This document shows, one piece after another, positions 1,994 to 11,465 of a stretch of DNA of 11,569 nt; position 1 is the first letter of the stretch, and every line of letters begins with the position of its first letter. The notes below the pieces were generated by a model. That model was given only the letters and a program-made list of their open reading frames with translations, had not been told where the DNA came from and searched no databases. Source of the stretch: a virus (lineage: Duplodnaviria > Heunggongvirae > Uroviricota > Caudoviricetes); the IMG/VR virus record IMGVR_UViG_2671180283_000020; one strand, 5' to 3'. Both the position numbers and the translations under genes were made by a program.

Positions 1994-2178
1994 TGCCAGC
2001 ATCCTTTTTGTATCGGACGTAAACGGGCCAGCATTGAAAGAATGCATATTTTATTTAATAGCTCCCGTTCGTGTTTTCTCTTGTTAATGGCATCTTCAGT
2101 AAATACAGGGTTACTGATAGTGACACCAATTTCAAAACAACCTTCAGACGTATTAACGTTTGGTAATAACGTTTCCAT
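1990..2178 (-). CDS. dicB: DicB cell-division inhibitor (62 aa)
   Basis: METLLPNVNTSEGCFEIGVTISNPVFTEDAINKRKHERELLNKICILSMLARLRPIQKGCWQ, near-identical to recalled E. coli DicB, with the same length. GAGGA Shine-Dalgarno 7 nt upstream of the ATG at 2176-2178. The track ORF (1990..2283) is extended upstream. Confidence 0.85.
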   Translation of the reverse strand: METLLPNVNTSEGCFEIGVTISNPVFTEDAINKRKHERELLNKICILSMLARLRPIQKGCWQ

Positions 2179-2352
2179 TATCGCGTCCTCAACAATGAAT
2201 TTTGTGATGCGGTGCCTGGTGCCTCCAGGTGACGTTAACCAGTTAACAATTAACGCCGGATACAGAGAATCCCCCCATAACACTGTTTTTGGTTTTAACT
2301 GTTCCGCGTGCGCTCAGCCGCATTCACCGCATCACAAAATTCACTTTAAAAA

Positions 2353-2405
2353 GGGCGGCAGAGCAGTCACGGAGTAAAACTGATACCGCCAAACGTCACC
2401 AGAAA
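2353..2405 (-). ncRNA. dicF: DicF small RNA (53 nt, ftsZ-targeting sRNA of dicB operons), followed by a T-run at 2348..2352
   Basis: Reverse complement of 2353..2405 is TTTCTGGTGACGTTTGGCGGTATCAGTTTTACTCCGTGACTGCTCTGCCGCCC, matching the DicF sequence as I remember it. It ends in a GC-rich stem plus U-tail and sits upstream of dicB on the same strand, as in Qin. Confidence 0.8.
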
Positions 2406-5822: not shown

Positions 5823-6276
5823 GCAGCAAATCCGACAGGTCTGCCGCCAGTGCATGGACCGCTGCCGGGAGGGTGAAACATGGCCTCCGGACCTGGCTGA
5901 GTTTGTGGCACTGATTTCGGAAAGCGGAGCCAATCCATTCGGTCTGACGGTGGATGCTGTGATGGAGGAGTACCGCCGCTGGCGCAATGAGTCCTGGCGA
6001 TACGACGGAAGTGATAAGTACCCGTGGTCTCAGCCTGTGCTGTATCACATTTGCCTCGAGATGCGTTCAAAGGGGGTTGAGCGCCAGATGACCGAAGGGG
6101 AATTAAAACGGCTTGCAGAACGGCAGCTGACGAAATGGGCAAAGCATGTTAGTAACGGCCTGAGCGTTCCGCCAGTCCGGCGACAACTGGCGGCACCCAA
6201 ACGCCCGTCGGGGCCAACGCCAATTGAGTTGCTGAAACAGGAATATGAACGCCGGAAAGCGGCTGGGCTTGTTTGA
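5611..6276 (+). CDS. Lambda P-like replication protein (helicase loader family)
   Basis: Strong Shine-Dalgarno AAGGGGGTG 6 nt upstream of the ATG at 5611. The C-terminal half (FVALISESGANPFGLTVDAVMEEYRRWRNESWRYDGSDKYPWSQPVLYHICLEMR...TEGELKRLAERQL) resembles lambda P (FVAWCREEA...VYEYCRKRGLYPDAESYPWKSNAHYWL...TDAELRRKAADEL). Alternative start at the ATG 5815, which overlaps the O-like stop as ATGACTGA. Confidence 0.7.
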   Translation: MQQHQGAPHHGQFRKFGQHVSSGNVKTDLSATETAWKLWELMGEVYSNRWTQKNGAAPSKLWIAQIGAMTEQQIRQVCRQCMDRCREGETWPPDLAEFVALISESGANPFGLTVDAVMEEYRRWRNESWRYDGSDKYPWSQPVLYHICLEMRSKGVERQMTEGELKRLAERQLTKWAKHVSNGLSVPPVRRQLAAPKRPSGPTPIELLKQEYERRKAAGLV

Positions 6277-6308: not shown

Positions 6309-6583
6309 ATGGAGACTGTTTTTGACGCACTGAAAGCAATGGGAAAAGCCACATCCATAGAACTTGCTGCGCGCGTGAAGAAGTGCTGAACGAACTATGG
6401 GAACTGAAAAAGGCTGGTTTTGTTGATAAAAGCGCGTACACCTGGCGTGTGGCTGATAACAACGTTCAGCAGGAACAGCCAGCGCAGGCAGAACTGCCGG
6501 AAGAAACCACCACAATGAGTGAAGTTATGCAGCGCATACTGGCATTTTATCAGGGAAATGTTCGATATTTTAGACGTTACTAG
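6309..6583 (+). pseudogene. Small winged-helix-like prophage gene split by a frameshift (rem-position gene): 26-codon N-terminal ORF 6309..6389 and a C-terminal ORF in another frame reaching the stop at 6581..6583
   Basis: GGGAGG Shine-Dalgarno 6 nt upstream of the ATG at 6309. Frame 0 reads [26 protein letters not shown] then stops; the adjacent frame reads (E)[27 protein letters not shown]... from about 6380. The two pieces together look like one small DNA-binding protein. Confidence 0.5.
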
Positions 6584-6975
6584 ATTAAAGAGCATTAGTT
6601 CAGATGTGAATTGACATTGTGTGGCACAGGGTTGGGCTAGCGTGGGGGTTTGCTTTGTGTAAGAAACGGATGCTCTGCAAATTACTACTAATGCTTAATG
6701 TTAGTCTGATCTGCTCCCCGATGATTAATACACCGCTATGTTAGTAATGTCTGTAGATCGCTGTGTGTTGCATCCATCGGTTGACCCCACAGTCCAAACC
6801 AGACTGTCAGCTTTGATTCGATTCTATCTACTCAACCTGTCAGGTAATGTCTGAGCTAATACACAGAGTACGGCTATCGCGAACTTTAAGCTAGGTATCT
6901 GATACGCACCGTTCACTTGTTTGTACTTCTTGCACTGACTAGCTATCGTGCGCAGTTATTTATAGGTAATCTCCA

Positions 6976-6984
6976 GTGTATAAT
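6976..6984 (+). promoter_or_regulatory. Candidate -10 element (TATAAT at 6979..6984 with TG immediately upstream) for the 281-aa gene
   Basis: gtgTATAAT about 38 nt upstream of the ATG at 7023, followed by AGGAGG Shine-Dalgarno 6 nt before the ATG. No good -35 hexamer found. Confidence 0.4.
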
Positions 6985-7022
6985 TTTCCAACTTATGGGA
7001 GATTGTAAAACAGGAGGAATAT

Positions 7023-7868
7023 ATGAGGAAAAAATCGTTTGGACGTTGCCCGTTTGATTTCGACGAAGATGTAAAAAAAATAGCCGCGATAAATAAATAT
7101 ATCCATGCGAAATTTGAGAGGCATAAAAATAAAATAGATAACCTAAAGGGGGTGGAACAAAAATTGATGGTTTTACATTACTTTAATGTACTGAATGAAC
7201 TTAGTAATCAGGCTATATTTTCTTTGAGTACCGGAGCCTTTTCAGCATCGGAAGTATTAACTAGAGTTATAATGGAACAGGCTGCCAATCAATTTTATAT
7301 AGCAATTGATGATGGAAAAAATGCACAAGCATTACTCAAGGGTAGTAAGAAATTAGTTCATAGTAATGGGAAACGGTGGCTGGAGTGTTTAAAATCCAAA
7401 GAAATGACTAATCCAGCAGCAGATGAAAGGATTCGTATCGGAAAAGAGCTAACTGATATGTTTAATAGATTGTGGCCAAATACACCTGAATATCCTGGAA
7501 CCAAAAAGCTTTTCGAAGTAATTGGCTGGGAAACACACTATCATGCCTATTACGTCCCTCTTTGTGATTCAATACATACATTCTCTGATGATATGGCAAA
7601 TATAGTATCTCTATATAATGCAATCCAAAGCGATAAAACTACTGCTATCGAACTCACTCTTGCAGTTAAACAAGAAAATAAACGGCTGGCAATTTATAAT
7701 GTCGTAATTGCTATTGGCCTGCGGTGTGAGGCCTTAGTAAATGTATTTAACTCTTTAGGTTATCGAGATATTATAACTGAAATGGCGCCAACAATAGATG
7801 CAGTCAACCAGATTATAATTCGATATGATGATTTCGAACATTCCAGAATTTTTATTGTCAATAATTAA
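7023..7868 (+). CDS. Orphan hypothetical protein (281 aa), AT-rich, predicted largely alpha-helical; candidate defence/abortive-infection cargo gene of unknown family
   Basis: Long ORF in AT-rich DNA with a near-consensus AGGAGG Shine-Dalgarno. No Walker, HNH, HEPN or other motif recognised by eye. Located between the prophage replication module and a decayed integrase plus the Septu operon. Confidence 0.75.
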   Translation: MRKKSFGRCPFDFDEDVKKIAAINKYIHAKFERHKNKIDNLKGVEQKLMVLHYFNVLNELSNQAIFSLSTGAFSASEVLTRVIMEQAANQFYIAIDDGKNAQALLKGSKKLVHSNGKRWLECLKSKEMTNPAADERIRIGKELTDMFNRLWPNTPEYPGTKKLFEVIGWETHYHAYYVPLCDSIHTFSDDMANIVSLYNAIQSDKTTAIELTLAVKQENKRLAIYNVVIAIGLRCEALVNVFNSLGYRDIITEMAPTIDAVNQIIIRYDDFEHSRIFIVNN

Positions 7869-7936
7869 TTGGCAGAATTCGTACATGCACAACAACTAGT
7901 TATAGTTGACCTATTTCGCTCTTGAGAGACAACCAT

Positions 7937-7969
7937 ACTCAAATCTTCCACATTGCAGGAGATTTGAGT
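7937..7969 (+). other. Perfect 10-bp inverted repeat ACTCAAATCT / AGATTTGAGT with a 13-nt loop, immediately upstream of the integrase-remnant ATG
   Basis: Read directly from sequence. The loop/right arm contains GGAG (7957..7960), the Shine-Dalgarno for the ATG at 7970. No U-tract follows, so not a classical terminator. Confidence 0.5.
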
Positions 7970-8490
7970 ATGAATACGTCACCGAGGAACAAAGACAGTA
8001 TCATAGGCCCAAAAAGACCACTTCAGATATCTCATATCTGGGGGCTCCAAATCCGGCTTGAACTGGAAGGTAAAACGCGTGATTTAGCTCGGTTTCAAGC
8101 AGAGCTACGGTGCTGCAACTGAAAAACTGGCAGTCCTATCCAATTTGAGATAACCAAAGGGACAAGAGAAGCTGTTTCTGCATTGATAAAGCTTGGCAAT
8201 TTACGCAGTAAAGACTACTTGTTCCGATCTCGGGTCGGTACTAACCAACACATATCAATCCTGCAATATAACCGAATCTTTCATAGGGGGGAGAAAAGCT
8301 TGGTCTCGAAGATTCGCTTTACAGCACACATTCCATGAGAAGAACAAAACCTTGCCTTGTCTGCAAGAAAACTAAGAATCTCCGGGTGATCCAACTTCCG
8401 TTGGGCCATAAGAAAACGGAAAGCACAGTTCGTTATCTGGGTATAGAAGTTGATGATGCATTAGAGATCTCTGAATCGATCGAAGTCTAA
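7970..8490 (+). pseudogene. Decayed small tyrosine recombinase (integrase catalytic-domain family): in-frame TGA at 8120..8122 and a frame change near 8336
   Basis: Three consecutive segments translate to MNTSPRNKDSIIGPKRPLQISHIWGLQIRLELEGKTRDLARFQAELRCCN* / KTGSPIQFEITKGTREAVSALIKLGNLRSKDYLFRSRVGTNQHISILQYNRIFHRGEKSLVSKIRFTAHIP* / RRTKPCLVCKKTKNLRVIQLPLGHKKTESTVRYLGIEVDDALEISESIEV*. These carry recombinase hallmarks (TRDLA Arg, H-x-x-RRTK, LGH, VRY tyrosine). The last two segments lack any Met, so they are absent from the ORF track. Confidence 0.65.
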
Positions 8491-8902
8491 AGCTGTCAGG
8501 GCTGCAGCAGCAGCCCTGTGCCAAGAGCGTACCAATATATGTCTCAAAAAATTGGGCACAGGTCAATATCAATACCAACAACTCTGATTGTGCTCATGTG
8601 ATTTACTCCTGTAGAAAACGCAGACAGTAAAAATATTTCACTGGCTGCTTCAGACAGGGCGTCCATCATATCATTACATAACAATAGCGGGGCACGATAT
8701 CTAGACATGCAGCAACGATGGACATAGAATGAGTACAATCAAAAGCATGTTTAACTACTTTAATTTAAAAATCTTAGAATCTTAGGTGTAGAGTTCAATA
8801 CTTAGTTACATACCCTTTTGAAAGCATCACAAATCATAACTATGAGCCTGTTAAAGGCATAGGTATTCTTAATTAAGAGCATTTTAATGAGAGAAAAATA
8901 AA

Positions 8903-10276
8903 ATGAAAAGACTATATTATACCCATCATGATAGTCGAACCTTAAAACTTGCTATAGAAGGTGATGTTTCTGATAATGCGAATATTTTTACAGTAATTGT
9001 AGGTAAAAATGGCGTTGGAAAAAGCAGATTGTTATCTCAGATTGCTAAAGACTGTATTCAAGATGTTCATTTCTTGAAAACTTTTAATCCATTATTTGAC
9101 AGAGAAATAACACCAAAGTTAATTGCCGTATCTACCAGCCCATTCGATAAATTCCCTCCAGGGCGTAGGTCATTAAATCACCAAAGGAAAGAAAATAATT
9201 ATCGCTATGTGGGTATGCGTGGAGAAGGCCCCTTCGGCGTATCAAATGCCGTATCCCTTTTATCTTCAGCAGCGAGAGGTTGGCTAGAGAAACTTGCTTA
9301 TTCAGAAAATCCTGCAAATTTACTCGATGTTTTTCATTCTATTGATTTTGAGCCCCATATAGAGTTTGTATTTAAACCAACTTACAACGGACCGGACACT
9401 CCTGACTATAACTTCATTGGTGTATATTCAGATGAGATATTAACGGAAGTTAAGGAGTTATATTTAAAATACAATATAAAAATTGACAGGAAGAATATTG
9501 AGAGTCTCTTAAAGTTAAACTCCGAATCACGTCATGATATTTACGAAGCACTGGTTGAAATTAATCGATTTGAACCTGAACGTAGGGCTGTAACCTTGTC
9601 AGTCGATTTTACCAATGGTGAAACATTGGTTGGCTCGACTTATGCGAATAATTATTTTTCTAGATCAATTCTTAAACTTATGAACGCTGGCTTCATGAGA
9701 TTGATGGATATGCGACTCATAAAAAAAAGCTATGGTCCCATGTCACTTAAACGTGCGAGCTCGGGAGAACAATGTTTATTAGTGATGTTGCTTGGAATTG
9801 CAGGGCATATAACTGATGGTTCTATAATATTAATTGATGAACCGGAAATAAGCTTGCATCCTCGATGGCAGGAAGAGTTTATCATTATGTTAACAAAAGC
9901 ATTTTTAACTTACTCAGGTTGTCAATTCATAATTGCAACTCATTCACCACAAATAATATCCAATTTGCCGAATAAAGGTTGTTATATAACATCTTTGTCG
10001 AAAAGTTATCTTTATAAAGCAAAATACTTTAGCAACCGGTCTGCAGACTATCAACTTGCGGAACTATTTGATGCCCCTGGCATTATGAATGAATACATTG
10101 CCAGGTTAGCTTTCAATTTACTTTCAAAAGTTAAGACTGCTAAGTTAGTAACAGATGATAATTGGCGTGAATTAAAACAACTCCAACTTCTCCTTGAAAA
10201 CGTTAATAGTAATGACCCTATTAATGAACTCGTAAATTCCGTATCTCAGGTGTGTGAAATTTATGCCAAAAATTAA
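8903..10276 (+). CDS. ptuA: Septu-like PtuA: ABC/OLD-type (AAA_15/AAA_21-like) ATPase, 457 aa
   Basis: Walker A VIVGKNGVGKSRLL near the N-terminus, ABC-signature-like SSGEQ, Walker B IILIDEPEISLHP, H-loop IIATHSP. AT-rich gene that overlaps the downstream HNH gene. Confidence 0.8.
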   Translation: MKRLYYTHHDSRTLKLAIEGDVSDNANIFTVIVGKNGVGKSRLLSQIAKDCIQDVHFLKTFNPLFDREITPKLIAVSTSPFDKFPPGRRSLNHQRKENNYRYVGMRGEGPFGVSNAVSLLSSAARGWLEKLAYSENPANLLDVFHSIDFEPHIEFVFKPTYNGPDTPDYNFIGVYSDEILTEVKELYLKYNIKIDRKNIESLLKLNSESRHDIYEALVEINRFEPERRAVTLSVDFTNGETLVGSTYANNYFSRSILKLMNAGFMRLMDMRLIKKSYGPMSLKRASSGEQCLLVMLLGIAGHITDGSIILIDEPEISLHPRWQEEFIIMLTKAFLTYSGCQFIIATHSPQIISNLPNKGCYITSLSKSYLYKAKYFSNRSADYQLAELFDAPGIMNEYIARLAFNLLSKVKTAKLVTDDNWRELKQLQLLLENVNSNDPINELVNSVSQVCEIYAKN

Positions 10277-10898
10277 AAATCCAATTAGATTCAGCGCAGA
10301 GTCATTAGATATTATTGAGAAAAAATTGTCTTCTCCAGATTTTAAGCATACCAACTGGGGAGATGATGATTTGCAAGTTCTCCGTGCAGAAATTAGAAAT
10401 CATTACAGAGAAGAACAAAAGCTAGAATGTGTATATTGTCATGAGCCTATTGGGGTAAGAGCTGCACAAGCTGCTCCTATAGAGCATATTGTGCCAAAAT
10501 CTCAATATCTATGTTTTATTTTTGAACCTAAGAATCTATGTGTAGTATGTCCTGACTGCAATGAATTCAAAGGTAAAAATGAAGTGTTATTTGAACCCGT
10601 AATAAATGGGGGGCGGCGCAAAAACTATCCAACTGCATCTGCATCATTTCGCATCGTTCATCCACATATAGATGATTATGAGATGCATATTATAAAAGCA
10701 AATCGTGTTTATGTGGACAAAACACCTAAAGGGCACTATACCATTGGAATATGTAAACTAAATAGATTTTTTCATTATTTTGGGATGTGTGATGAATTTG
10801 TTAATGATGCAAAAATTGCTGAGGCAAATGAAAATTTTTTCAAAAAAGGTAGTATTACTACTAATGAATTATTGGATGATGACATTCATTTGATTTAA
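10263..10898 (+). CDS. ptuB: Septu-like PtuB: HNH endonuclease, 211 aa from the ATG at 10263 (214 aa if the GTG at 10254 is used)
   Basis: HNH-type motif CVYCHEP...APIEHIVPKSQ...CVVCPDCNEFKGKN...VHPHID (Cys pairs plus His/Asn/His). Overlaps the ptuA 3' end by 14-23 nt, implying one operon. Confidence 0.8.
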   Translation: MPKIKNPIRFSAESLDIIEKKLSSPDFKHTNWGDDDLQVLRAEIRNHYREEQKLECVYCHEPIGVRAAQAAPIEHIVPKSQYLCFIFEPKNLCVVCPDCNEFKGKNEVLFEPVINGGRRKNYPTASASFRIVHPHIDDYEMHIIKANRVYVDKTPKGHYTIGICKLNRFFHYFGMCDEFVNDAKIAEANENFFKKGSITTNELLDDDIHLI

Positions 10899-11007
10899 CT
10901 ATGAATTATTATATTGTAAAGTAATCAGGTAAGATATGTTAGACAGTGAGACTATTGCCTTACAGAATTCATTATTCTTATGGATCGCCTTTCTGACTGA
11001 TTTCATA

Positions 11008-11036
11008 TTGGCGGGGTAACGGGAGTTAAGTAGAAT
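11008..11036 (+). promoter_or_regulatory. Candidate hok mRNA promoter (-35 TTGGCG 11008..11013, 17-bp spacer, -10 TAGAAT 11031..11036)
   Basis: Hexamers read directly. The downstream leader (GCTTGAGGCTATCTGTCTCA...GGCAGATAGAGAAAAGCCCC) resembles the 5' region of plasmid R1 hok mRNA as I recall it. Confidence 0.45.
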
Positions 11037-11094
11037 GGCTGCGGGTGCTTGAGGCTATCTGTCTCAGGCATGAACACCAAAGGCAGATAGAGAA

Positions 11095-11165
11095 AAGCCC
11101 CAGTTAACATTACGCGTCCTGCAAGACGCTTAACATTAATCTGAGGCCAATTTCATGCTAGACAC
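11095..11165 (-). ncRNA. sok: Putative Sok-like antisense RNA (boundaries approximate)
   Basis: Inferred from the minus-strand promoter at 11170..11198 and from the hok/sok paradigm, where Sok is antisense to the mok translation-initiation region. Neither end is clearly defined by a terminator in the sequence. Confidence 0.3.
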
Positions 11166-11169
11166 ATGT

Positions 11170-11198
11170 AGGTTAGCCTCTTACGTGCCGGAAGGCAA
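11170..11198 (-). promoter_or_regulatory. Candidate sok promoter on the minus strand (-35 TTGCCT, 17-bp spacer, -10 TAACCT)
   Basis: Reverse complement of 11193..11198 is TTGCCT and of 11170..11175 is TAACCT. It sits between the upstream ATG at 11155 and the hok ATG, the arrangement I recall for the R1 sok promoter (TTGCGC / TATCCT). Confidence 0.45.
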
Positions 11199-11211
11199 GG
11201 AGAAGCAGGCT

Positions 11212-11367
11212 ATGAAGCAGCAAAAGGCGATGTTAATCGCCCTGATCGTCATCTGTTTAACCGTCATAGTGACGACACTGGTAACGAGGAAAGACCTCTG
11301 CGAGGTACGAATCCGAACCGGCCAGACGGAGGTCGCTGTCTTCACAGCTTACGAACCTGAGGAGTAA
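11212..11367 (+). CDS. hokD: Hok/Gef-family type I toxin (51 aa), HokD/RelF-like
   Basis: MKQQKAMLIALIVICLTVIVTTLVTRKDLCEVRIRTGQTEVAVFTAYEPEE with AAGGAG Shine-Dalgarno 9 nt upstream. Near-identical to recalled HokD (RelF). The track ORF 11155..11367 is an in-frame upstream extension from the mok-equivalent ATG. Confidence 0.85.
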   Translation: MKQQKAMLIALIVICLTVIVTTLVTRKDLCEVRIRTGQTEVAVFTAYEPEE

Positions 11368-11435
11368 GAGACCCGGCGAGGGAGAAATCCCTCGCCACCT
11401 CTGATGTGGCAGGCATCCTCAACGCACCCGCACTT

Positions 11436-11465
11436 AACCCGCTTCGGCGGGTTTTTGTTTTTATT
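11436..11465 (+). terminator. Rho-independent terminator at the hok mRNA 3' end
   Basis: AACCCGC-TTCG-GCGGGTT stem-loop followed by TTTGTTTTTATTTT. A further hairpin GGCGAGGG-agaaat-CCCTCGCC lies at 11375..11396. Confidence 0.6.

Follow-up and report, generated by a model that had tools for sequence, protein, structure and literature searches.

Core sites of the Xer/dif and Cre/lox systems consist of inverted recombinase-binding arms around an asymmetric spacer. For the repeats of phage P2, site-specific recombination was reportedly proposed in the title of a 2004 article by Nilsson, Karlsson and Haggard-Ljungquist (Mol Biol Evol 21:1, doi 10.1093/molbev/msg223), and that description of the P2 repeats is prior art for part of the border system analyzed here. 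Within the GenBank set covering the P2 Z/fun region (AJ512679-AJ512685), left and right inverted repeats are annotated in AJ512680 and AJ512683; the "right inverted repeat" labels used below are GenBank features of these P2 sequences. Fixed slots for defense genes have also been described in temperate phages, with the P2 old/tin and P4 psu-int loci as the subject of two studies (PMC9122126; PMC13586616). According to the NAR 2026 study, the underlying recombination processes "still need to be elucidated"; the term "inverted repeat" is absent from it (PMC13586616). The borders described below provide a testable candidate for the way in which defense systems pass from one mobile element to another, unrelated one.

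We analyzed a window of 11,569 nucleotides (IMG/VR record IMGVR_UViG_2671180283_000020), which belongs to a Qin/Rac-type lambdoid prophage of E. coli. Its genes are ordered as replication genes, spacer, DUF5677, integrase pseudogene, Septu, and hokD, and the cargo hotspot, as delimited by sequence comparison, is bounded by the replication module and hokD. The spacer at 6584-7022 holds no sizable open reading frame, as the initial annotation had stated; the longest ones touching it encode 46 aa (6917..7057, which continues into the gene that follows), 41 aa (6619..6744), and 38 aa (6738..6854). We read this spacer as the patchwork, non-coding left border of a lambdoid cargo hotspot, at which a recombinase probably moves cassettes, and assign this reading a probability of roughly 0.7. 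The spacer does not function as a single unit. Searching for what it travels with recovered the border of the hotspot, an insertion-sequence end, a P2 right inverted repeat, and the DUF5677 cassette. The suggestion of a regulatory or recombination region at an island junction was right in substance, because the spacer, which is the left junction of the variable cargo, holds relics of boundary repeats and, at its end, the putative promoter of the next gene.

A close parallel is with the P2 Z/fun repeats: the P2 left inverted repeat is homologous to the lambdoid border, the right one to window positions 6790-6863, and in both cases the repeats flank foreign "moron" DNA carrying its own promoters. 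The differences are that the present locus is lambdoid and lies behind the replication genes rather than between genes G and FI, and that the copies in the window are degenerate and cut by an insertion sequence. Similarly, the P2 and P4 defense slots share with this locus a fixed position in a temperate phage, interchangeable anti-phage systems, and native promoters (PMC9122126; PMC13586616), whereas the slots concerned here are a lambdoid one and the P2 Z/fun one.

Upstream of the spacer, the replication module is closed by the 3' remnant of a DUF1627/DUF977 gene with a Ren-like C-terminus (6383..6583, plus strand), the stop codon of which overlaps the CTAG at 6580. RefSeq marks a frameshifted DUF1627 pseudogene at these positions in E2348/69, the segment matches phrog_630 and the Ren-like phrog_142 in PHROG, and other prophages carry an intact DUF977 gene at this position. 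The spacer then opens with a conserved left boundary repeat of the lambdoid hotspot (6584..6671), a homologue of the "left inverted repeat" of the P2 Z region. Its first 84 nt match about 900 of 5426 complete E. coli genomes as well as phages Tritos, Evi, and 204576, and the border is present in more than 120 IMG/VR contigs. Column identity reaches 0.84-0.86 at 6615-6672, versus 0.68-0.81 in the preceding gene. The homology ends at one point, after which at least 12 cargo types follow. The link to P2 passes through an intermediate: compared directly, the window's own left border and the P2 left repeat are not significantly similar (z=1.0), but the Tritos-type copy, to which the window border is 85% identical, aligns with the P2-EC46 left inverted repeat over 49 nt (z=9.2). 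The repeat terminates in a degenerate left-type palindromic site (6648..6671; GTTTGCTTT-GTGTAA-GAAACGGAT) that agrees at 16 of 24 positions with the family consensus GTCCGCTTT-GTGCCA-AGAGCGGAC, for which arms and spacers were counted over 137 loci. Sites of this type span 24 bp, composed of a 9-bp arm, a 6-bp spacer, and a second 9-bp arm. Two alternative hairpins tried for this border are well paired (94.5% and 85.8% of cells), with no covariation beyond that of shuffled alignments.

The middle of the spacer is a succession of unrelated fragments. The left site is followed, toward the cargo, by a 34-bp remnant (6672..6705) whose 3' end is ATGTTAGT, a word common to the starts of several other cargo types in the junction listing (GAAACGGCATTTGCAAAT in L087, TATGTTAGTTTAA in L136 and L156). 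Next comes a solo left terminal inverted repeat of an ISSen4-like element of the IS3 family, IS407 group (6707..6752, plus strand), which starts with TG, as insertion-sequence ends of this kind do, and shares 89% identity with the left end of the element in phages mEp234 and PhiR12_5. The same 47 bp, which match the left terminal repeat and subterminal sequence of ISSen4, occur up to 20 times per genome adjoining genes annotated as "IS3-like element ISSen4 family transposase". In contrast to ISSen4, the scar in the window has no transposase, right end, or target duplication; a second ISSen4-like end was not found in the window within 3 mismatches, and neither orfA/orfB nor any other part of the 1221-bp element showed further similarity there. 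The segment is an insertion-sequence remnant and not a member of the IS3 family. The following 37 bp (6753..6789) have no assigned origin and travel with the cassette, being present in the P2-context and Buttiauxella copies; local alignment against shuffled sequences did not detect an insertion-sequence origin for them. We also considered 6753-6822 as the right end of the same element, which would have made the whole MITE-like, and rejected this, as the local alignment score was below the shuffle mean. Positions 6763-6817 also resemble intergenic DNA of E. coli strain 300081, at 87% identity. Across alleles, four independent insertion-sequence insertions are tolerated between 6707 and 6864.

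The segment at 6790..6863 (plus strand) is homologous to the "right inverted repeat" of the P2 Z region. Within it, positions 6794-6817 are identical to the P2-EC46 right inverted repeat at 21 of 23 positions (z=8.4), the copy covers 69 nt at 80% in the comparison, and similarity reaches 6863 in a multiple alignment with the P2 right flanks and the TUM10008 island. The copy starts with a hybrid right-type site, CAGTCC-AAACCAGAC (6790-6804), which agrees with the consensus at 11 of 24 positions. Comparison among contexts shows 6790-6863 as the left end of a DUF5677 cassette of ~1.1 kb, the right end of which is the right-type site at 7907-7930; the segment is probably the left recombination junction of that cassette. 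Copies of the same cassette occupy the P2 G/FI slot and are also present in Buttiauxella and BS0013; the BS0013 match stops at 7910, at the right-type site.

The remainder of the spacer (6864..7022, plus strand) is the native upstream region of DUF5677 and is kept in all four contexts, namely lambdoid, P2, Buttiauxella, and BS0013. The allele studied here lacks 19 bp at 6863/6864, the point at which ISEc12 lies in strain 98208. A TATAAT element (6979-6984) is invariant in all alleles, its putative -35 partner, TTATTT, matches 2 of 6 positions, and a strong ribosome-binding site, AGGAGG (7012-7017), precedes the ATG at 7023; we infer that the TATAAT element would drive DUF5677 from a start near 6991. 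This putative promoter, read from the sequence, was not flagged by our consensus scan because its -35 element is poor. Within the spacer, the scan, whose promoter and terminator counts were at or below shuffle expectation, reported neither a promoter on the plus strand nor a terminator-like site. The single hit it gave there was a minus-strand promoter-like match at 7009-6980, and the one terminator-like site, at 8350-8368 on the minus strand, lies outside. The DUF5677 gene itself (7023..7868, plus strand; Pfam PF18928, phrog_4167) encodes a solitary, all-helical protein of 281 aa (AF2 model, pLDDT 91.5), for which PADLOC, NCBIfam, and comparisons of sequence and fold with the PDB all gave no match. 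Of the nine candidates that a 2025 preprint tested, one was a DUF5677 gene from Bacillota, and the preprint does not list it with the protective ones.

Conservation in the four contexts extends ~200 bp upstream of DUF5677, and a local hairpin (AATCTCC/GGGAGATT) is possible around the -10 element and the ribosome-binding site, as one might expect if the spacer encoded a structured non-coding RNA, acted as a long regulatory leader, or supplied DUF5677 with an RNA antitoxin. We regard this as highly improbable. Rfam returned no match in 6540-7060 even at E<=10, nor in the spacer when the whole window was searched, and single-sequence folds of its parts and of the whole, on both strands, gave z-scores of +0.25, -0.58, -0.59, and -0.97 relative to dinucleotide shuffles. 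Folding an alignment of seven distinct upstream alleles (6823-7025) showed compensatory change in none of 62 pairs, and the covariation term was positive, at a low diversity that limits the power of this test. The upstream region is not conserved beyond the level of the coding region (90.2% versus 92.6% identity), and the four insertions mentioned above and the 19-bp deletion are all tolerated between 6707 and 6864. Distant DUF5677 homologues have upstream gaps of 136-546 bp in which we saw no shared motif. Tandem Repeats Finder (score >=30) detected no tandem repeats in the spacer; a type III toxin-antitoxin RNA would call for tandem direct repeats upstream of DUF5677, where the only candidate is a 10-mer pair 100 bp apart and unconserved. 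No tRNA or tmRNA was found. The initial annotation had offered an untranslated leader or a noncoding RNA as options; with fold energies like those of shuffles, insertions tolerated, and Rfam and covariation null, neither gained support.

That the spacer could be a decayed protein-coding gene is more improbable still. Pseudogenes do occur in the neighboring DNA (the DUF1627 and integrase remnants), but none of 5.8 billion protein sequences matched the spacer at E<=10 in a six-frame search, and its DNA homologues are all non-coding, comprising annotated repeats, an insertion-sequence terminal repeat, and intergenic DNA. A 28-codon open reading frame of another allele was rejected as a conserved small gene, as the 19-bp deletion removed its start from the allele studied here and L031 carries a frameshift in it. 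Rather than the degraded coding remnant that had been named as a possible outcome, the spacer contains a degraded end of a mobile element.

The candidate for moving the cassettes is a tyrosine recombinase of ~200 aa, present in the window as a pseudogene (7970..8490, plus strand) with ~75 nt missing internally. Its alignment to the intact gene is split, and RefSeq describes it as [quoted passage not shown]. The Buttiauxella copy has a Pfam Phage_integrase match, and the NCBIfam matches of the recombinase, Xer-like and DNA-invertase-like, are all below cut-off. In every context examined, the recombinase is bounded by the same two palindromic site types, with the sequence GTCYGCTTT-N6-AAAGCRGAC and the spacer GTGCCA in the left type or TCGCTC in the right type; the division into arms and spacer is our own. 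Recombinase homologues at 60% identity keep this architecture with different letters. In the window, the left edge of the module is a right-type site (7907..7930; TGACCTATT-TCGCTC-TTGAGAGAC) with the only TCGCTC copy in the window, and module homology begins at 7916, the first base of TCGCTC. At the other edge (8497..8532), a hairpin (CAGGGCTGC/GCAGCCCTG) is followed by a left-type site (8509-8532; AGCAGCCCT-GTGCCA-AGAGCGTAC; 18 of 24 consensus positions), after which the Septu cargo starts. The succession of recombinase stop, hairpin, and GTGCCA with its 9-nt arm recurs in at least 11 contexts, with unrelated DNA beyond the arm; two Septu subtypes, bSEFIR, and HEC-08 are among the downstream neighbors. 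Upstream of the TCGCTC spacer, we counted at least 9 different neighbors among recombinase modules. At the lambdoid and P2 hotspots, too, both site types mark the limits of the cargo, with unrelated defense cassettes beyond, and they are found in the unrelated backbones of lambdoid phages, P2, and a tRNA-Ser island.

The hotspot cargo of the window further includes a Septu defense system (8903..10898, plus strand) consisting of PtuA (8903-10276; PADLOC, 1.2e-165) and PtuB (10254-10898; 1.1e-83). Homology to Tritos resumes at 10972, in the right flank of the hotspot with sok/hokD (10972..11217, plus strand; Rfam sok, 117 bits). Among 99 contigs with both flanks, we distinguished at least 12 cargo types of 0.7-7 kb, including QueH, PDC-S15, AbiH, PDC-M68B, a CBASS cyclase, and PD-T7-1. 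Left and right repeats in inverted orientation enclose many lambdoid cargos. In the window, the right-type core is missing on the hokD side, where TCGCTCAAAGCGGAC has no match within 3 mismatches, and the right-inverted-repeat copy sits inside the cargo. The commonest cargo type, QueH, likewise has no right-type site on that side. Since none survives there, the cargos of the window and of the QueH type are not clean cassettes. The recombinase gene is absent from most cargo types; the recombinase would therefore have to act in trans.

Alternatively, the borders would be ordinary module junctions, in which cargo is swapped by homologous recombination in the conserved flanks, the palindromes are transcription-insulating or mRNA-stabilizing hairpins, and the recombinase is a passenger gene. 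This is the main rival explanation, and we consider it unlikely, though well ahead of the RNA and decayed-gene readings. Flanks of ~90 nt on the left and ~270 nt on the right are similar enough for RecA- or Red-type exchange, the recombinase is missing from most cargos, and the G:U pairs of the border hairpin work only on the plus strand, which fits an RNA hairpin. The two ends of a cassette do not co-vary either: cargo-side arms are complementary at 10.5 of 21 positions within the same cassette versus 10.1 across cassettes, a result that rules out co-varying terminal inverted repeats. Against this, the left homology breaks at the same few bases for at least 12 cargo types, and on either side of the recombinase module the break coincides with the site spacer, in at least 9 contexts on one side and at least 11 on the other. 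Lambdoid, P2, and tRNA-Ser island backbones, which are unrelated, have the same two site types, and no U-tract follows the hairpins, with no intrinsic terminator reported in the spacer.

We thus favor a hotspot border at which cassettes are moved by the recombinase. The anatomy of the spacer and of the recombinase sites is established, and from it we infer recombinase-driven cassette exchange, the evidence for which is comparative throughout and consists of breakpoints in sequences. In the proposed mechanism, the palindromic sites would be the crossover sites of the small tyrosine recombinase encoded beside DUF5677; in lambdoid and P2-like prophages alike, this recombinase would bring in or exchange cargo cassettes at borders of this kind. 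The system in the window would be a fossil, with its recombinase broken, its left site degenerate, and an insertion sequence having cut through the junction. Inverted arms of ~9 bp around a 6-bp asymmetric spacer, which would bind the recombinase, give the sites a likeness to Xer/dif and Cre/lox. By analogy with heterospecific-site cassette exchange, identical arms with two different spacers could permit exchange without excision.

A broader version, which we put forward tentatively, is that lambdoid and P2-like phages, which are temperate and belong to unrelated families, and some chromosomal islands share one cassette-exchange system built on the ~200-aa recombinase and two sites, with the spacer as its fossil junction. 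The heterospecific pair may then be GTCYGCTTT-GTGCCA-arm and arm-TCGCTC-AAAGCRGAC, and Septu, CBASS, bSEFIR, AbiH, PD-T7-1, HEC-08, and DUF5677 may be among the cargos swapped at fixed slots. Such a system would resemble the integron in that a tyrosine recombinase adjoins a site followed by variable cassettes with defense genes as cargo, and in that the cassettes, with or without promoters, are bounded by imperfect palindromes of fixed architecture and variable sequence. It differs in having a recombinase of ~200 aa (54.6 bits against XerA "tyrosine recombinase/integron integrase", with a cut-off of 220), 9-6-9 palindromes with two spacers in place of attC R/L boxes and GTTRRRY, a phage platform, and a recombinase co-oriented with its cassettes. 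This analogy supports the statement that the system may work like an integron, not that it is one. If true, the shared system would explain the sharp-bordered swapping of cassettes, would amount to a phage counterpart of the integron and a mobilization function for defense systems, and would supply a rule for locating new defense genes as whatever lies between sites; a compact recombinase with two orthogonal sites might also serve as a tool. Taken alone, the spacer is an unremarkable junction between genes, with scars and a putative promoter, and its value is as a pointer to the border system.

The short words on which the junction had originally been proposed proved incidental to it. The 10-mer GTAATGTCTG does occur at 6744 and 6844, exactly 100 bp apart; its first copy falls within the insertion-sequence end, and the second reads ATAAGGTCTG in all other alleles. 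The 8-mer ATGTTAGT starts at 6738 as given and at 6698 rather than 6699, with a third copy at 6146. The inverted pair is present, with GCATTAGT at 6592 and ACTAATGC at 6687, and the true inverted match is 9 bp rather than 8. Among 1000 first-order Markov sequences of the same composition as the spacer, 9% contained a direct repeat of at least 10 nt, 78% a direct repeat of at least 8 nt, 81% an inverted repeat of at least 8 nt, and 32% at least three CTAG. Neither the quoted words nor the number of CTAG copies exceeds chance, and most of these features are absent from relatives. Of the four or more CTAG sites claimed, three lie inside the interval (6637, 6891, and 6939) and the fourth, at 6580-6583, overlaps the stop codon immediately outside; those at 6891 and 6939 are seen in this allele only. 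The low-GC half of the window that carries the cargo is simply richer in CTAG, with 11 of the 12 copies beyond position 6500.

A defective lambdoid prophage of E. coli, of the Qin/Rac type and near-identical to a prophage of EPEC E2348/69, makes up the window. After DicF (within 2146-2404, minus strand; 76.7 bits) come a cI-like repressor, cro, ydaT, a DnaT-like initiator, a lambda-P-like gene and a frameshifted DUF1627/DUF977 remnant ending at 6583, where the spacer (6584-7022) begins. Beyond it lie a DUF5677 gene (7023-7868), a tyrosine-recombinase pseudogene (7970-8490), Septu PtuA and PtuB (8903-10898) and, last, sok/hokD. GC content falls from ~55% in the replication genes to 30-40% past 6900.

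The initial annotation had called the spacer ORF-free, and indeed the longest ORF on both strands is 46 aa. The short words it listed were accurately reported, yet they do not exceed the chance level. The direct repeat GTAATGTCTG occurs at 6744 and 6844, the inverted pair GCATTAGT and ACTAATGC at 6592 and 6687, and the pair of ATGTTAGT copies at 6698 and 6738, one base off a reported coordinate; of the at least four CTAG sites claimed, three fall within the interval and the fourth (6580-6583) overlaps the preceding stop codon. Of 1000 Markov sequences matched in composition, 9% contained a direct repeat of 10 nt and 78% one of 8 nt; 81% had an inverted pair of 8 nt, and 32% carried at least three CTAG. 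No tandem repeats were detected in the spacer. The suggestion of a noncoding RNA or untranslated leader was not supported: no Rfam family was found even at E<=10, fold energies equal those of shuffles, and compensatory pairs across seven distinct alleles numbered 0 of 62, so that an RNA gene is very unlikely. A decayed protein gene, which the same annotation had named as a refuting outcome, is likewise very unlikely, since a six-frame translation search against 5.8 billion proteins returned no match at E<=10. The remaining suggestion, a regulatory or recombination region at an island junction, stands on other grounds than those words, namely a hotspot border and P2-type repeats.

Searched alone, as had been advised, against 5426 complete E. 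coli genomes, the spacer matched 963. Only 17 carry it in full; the majority match just its first 84 nt, a piece located behind the stop codon of DUF977 in numerous lambdoid prophages as well as in phages Tritos, Evi and 204576. When IMG/VR was scanned with a pattern, the border sequence came up in more than 120 contigs, in which homology ends at one point and unrelated DNA follows. The sok/hokD flank is also present in 99 of 138 border copies, and these 99 hold, between their two flanks, cargo 0.7-7 kb long and of at least 12 types; QueH is the most frequent, and PDC-S15, AbiH with a partner, PDC-M68B, a CBASS cyclase and PD-T7-1 also occur. The single homology endpoint and the varied cargo between two flanks thus identify 6584-6671 as the left-hand edge of a hotspot for cargo and defence genes. 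Conservation is 0.84-0.86 in this border (not counting the 26 nt that the search pattern itself imposed) versus 0.68-0.81 in the preceding gene. The DUF977-hokD slot of Rac/Qin-type prophages (IMG/VR loci L005 and L130-L163; in the window, from 6584-6671 to 10972) is a defence hotspot that counts Septu among its cargos; our literature searches, not aimed at that slot, found no description of it. A chimeric 221-aa ORF on an ENA metagenome contig (P0006) joins a QueH domain (PF02677) to a stretch sharing 94% identity with a portion of DUF5677, which suggests a deletion fusing two alternative cargos of one hotspot.

The rest of the spacer has connections outside lambdoid phages. About 40 genomes, including IHE3034 and S88, carry the cassette 6706-8074 (~90% identity) in the G/FI slot of a P2-like prophage; it is also present in a Buttiauxella genome, and its 6823-7910 portion recurs beside guaA in strain BS0013. 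The stretch 6763-6863 matches intergenic DNA of two further E. coli islands, as well as DNA immediately 5' of the P2 sheath gene. Comparing the P2 cassette flanks with phage records gave matches to GenBank AJ512679-AJ512685, the "proviral Z-region" entries of P2-EC45 to P2-EC67, in stretches annotated as "left inverted repeat" (113 bp) and "right inverted repeat" (91 bp). These entries are those of Nilsson et al. 2004, a study cited in PMC9122126, and border repeats as such were already known for P2. Over 49 nt, the lambdoid border can be aligned to the left repeat of P2 (z=9.2), and window 6794-6817 agrees with the P2 right repeat at 21/23 positions (z=8.4), the similarity running on to 6863.

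At the lambdoid left junction, cargo comes after GTCCGCTTT-GTGCCA-(A/G)(A/G)AGCGGAC; on the right, it gives way to GTC(C/T)GCTTT-like-TCGCTC-AAAGCGGAC and then backbone. Both site types also occur in P2-EC46. By their likeness to tyrosine-recombinase core sites, they can be read as 9-bp inverted arms around a 6-bp spacer that differs between left and right. In the window, left-type sites lie at 6648-6671 (16/24 consensus positions) and 8509-8532 (18/24) and a right-type site at 7907-7930; no right-type core survives near hokD. The cargo-facing arm differs by cargo type; the two arms of one cargo are no more alike than arms of different cargos, which gives no support for cassette-specific ends.

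The same site types flank a small recombinase module. Intact relatives of the 7970-8490 pseudogene are ~200 aa long and have Xer-like and DNA-invertase-like catalytic domains, every score falling under the family cut-off; relatives are encoded in 68 viral loci. In all full-length E. coli-group copies bar one deleted variant, the recombinase stop codon is followed by a hairpin, CAGGGCTGC/GCAGCCCTG, and then by GTGCCA and a 9-nt arm, past which we found at least 11 distinct DNA continuations; downstream neighbours include two Septu subtypes, bSEFIR, HEC-08, a PDC-M01B-like protein and several unknowns. Module homology starts at TCGCTC, 49 nt 5' of the recombinase start codon; in front of it stand an arm resembling GTCCGCTTT and any of at least nine different neighbours, and the window's own alignment to such modules begins at 7916, the first base of TCGCTC. 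With TCGCTC upstream and GTGCCA downstream, the module is therefore flanked by one site of each type, the types that flank cargo in phage backbones. Homologues at ~60% identity keep the arrangement and change the letters (GCAGCTTT-GAGTCG-GTTAGCGAC upstream, GTCGCTAAC-CGGCCA-GAAGCGGAT downstream).

These comparisons demonstrate the anatomy of the spacer and its borders, and from the sequences we infer that the palindromes are putative crossover sites of the small tyrosine recombinase. The main rival, which we consider rather unlikely, is homologous exchange within conserved flanks, the palindromes being RNA hairpins; breakpoints that are sharp and recurrent across unrelated backbones count against it and favour site-specific exchange. 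Caution on site-specific exchange comes from the degeneracy of the window's sites, from the lack of a right site in some cargos, including the commonest (QueH), and from the majority of cargos lacking a recombinase. In its layout, with variable cassettes edged by imperfect palindromes lined up behind a site next to a recombinase gene, the border system works like an integron, but it has neither an IntI-type enzyme nor attC boxes and so is not classed as one. Recent work on P2/P4 hotspots does not mention the repeats and calls the exchange mechanism unresolved (PMC13586616); the recombinase-site lead turns that open question into a testable one. We rate the spacer by itself as an ordinary scarred junction.

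Sites of these types were also seen elsewhere. In E. coli TUM10008 (L170, 2480-2580), an island at tRNA-Ser that carries an integrase has a consensus right-type site, GTCCGCTCC-TCGCTC-AAAGCAGAC, with a P2-type right repeat, flanked by genes for DUF4365 and the VbhA antitoxin, so the sites occur beyond phages too. Two loci (L181, 7266-7320; L206, 2399-2455) have a right-type site and, ~42 nt later, a left-type half site, an arrangement that would be expected of two cassettes in tandem. A perfect 13-bp inverted repeat, CATACTCAAATCT (7934-7946) and AGATTTGAGTATG (7960-7972), whose right arm includes the recombinase start codon, is kept, slightly altered, in recombinase modules from elsewhere and may act as an operator for autoregulation or as a hairpin that masks translation.

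The scars lie just upstream of DUF5677, where the alleles compared record at least four insertion-sequence events. Positions 6707-6752 correspond to the left terminal repeat of an element in the IS3 family, annotated as ISSen4 family, which reaches up to 20 copies in one genome; no other part of such an element is left beyond that match. Insertion points are 6707, 6757/6758 (OkiPb01713), 6822/6823 (BS0013) and 6863/6864 (ISEc12, strain 98208), and at the last of these the window allele lacks 19 bp. These four independent events within 160 bp (6707-6864; loci L006, L008 and L171) comprise an ISSen4-like end, another IS3-family element, an IS407-group-like end and ISEc12, and the clustering may reflect a target hotspot or selection uncoupling DUF5677 from upstream transcription. 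The constant part, 6864-7022, holds an invariant TATAAT (6979-6984), which we infer to be a putative DUF5677 promoter element, a weak -35, AGGAGG (7012-7017) and the start codon. Against the P2 copy, the gene shows 92.6% identity, the DNA upstream of it 90.2% and that downstream 87.9%, so the upstream DNA is not better preserved than the gene. Distant homologues of DUF5677 (36-54% identity) occur as solitary genes in surroundings that resemble defence islands, one directly 3' of a lambda-P-like gene in an Erwiniaceae prophage, and their upstream gaps (136-546 bp) have no shared motif.

The DUF5677 protein has a confident, all-helical AF2 model (pLDDT 91.5), for which a fold search found no match in the PDB (best E 0.13). 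Its relatives form only 54 clusters among 1.84 billion representatives, and homologues adjoin CBASS, nSTAND, UvrD-like and PRTase genes. The modelled protein is a candidate single-gene defence or accessory protein whose fold has no PDB match. Elsewhere in the window, a sub-threshold STnc100-like match (39.7 versus a gathering score of 47) directly follows DicF (2146-2404, minus strand), and a weak isrK-like match at 11376-11457 (25.7 bits versus 50), downstream of hokD, lies close to the position of rem in E2348/69. The window's left end (1-735) is an IS3-family element with an ALIL pseudoknot (programmed frameshift) at 282-398 on the minus strand; the same element flanks a rearranged DUF5677-Septu-hokD block in strain OkiPb01713.
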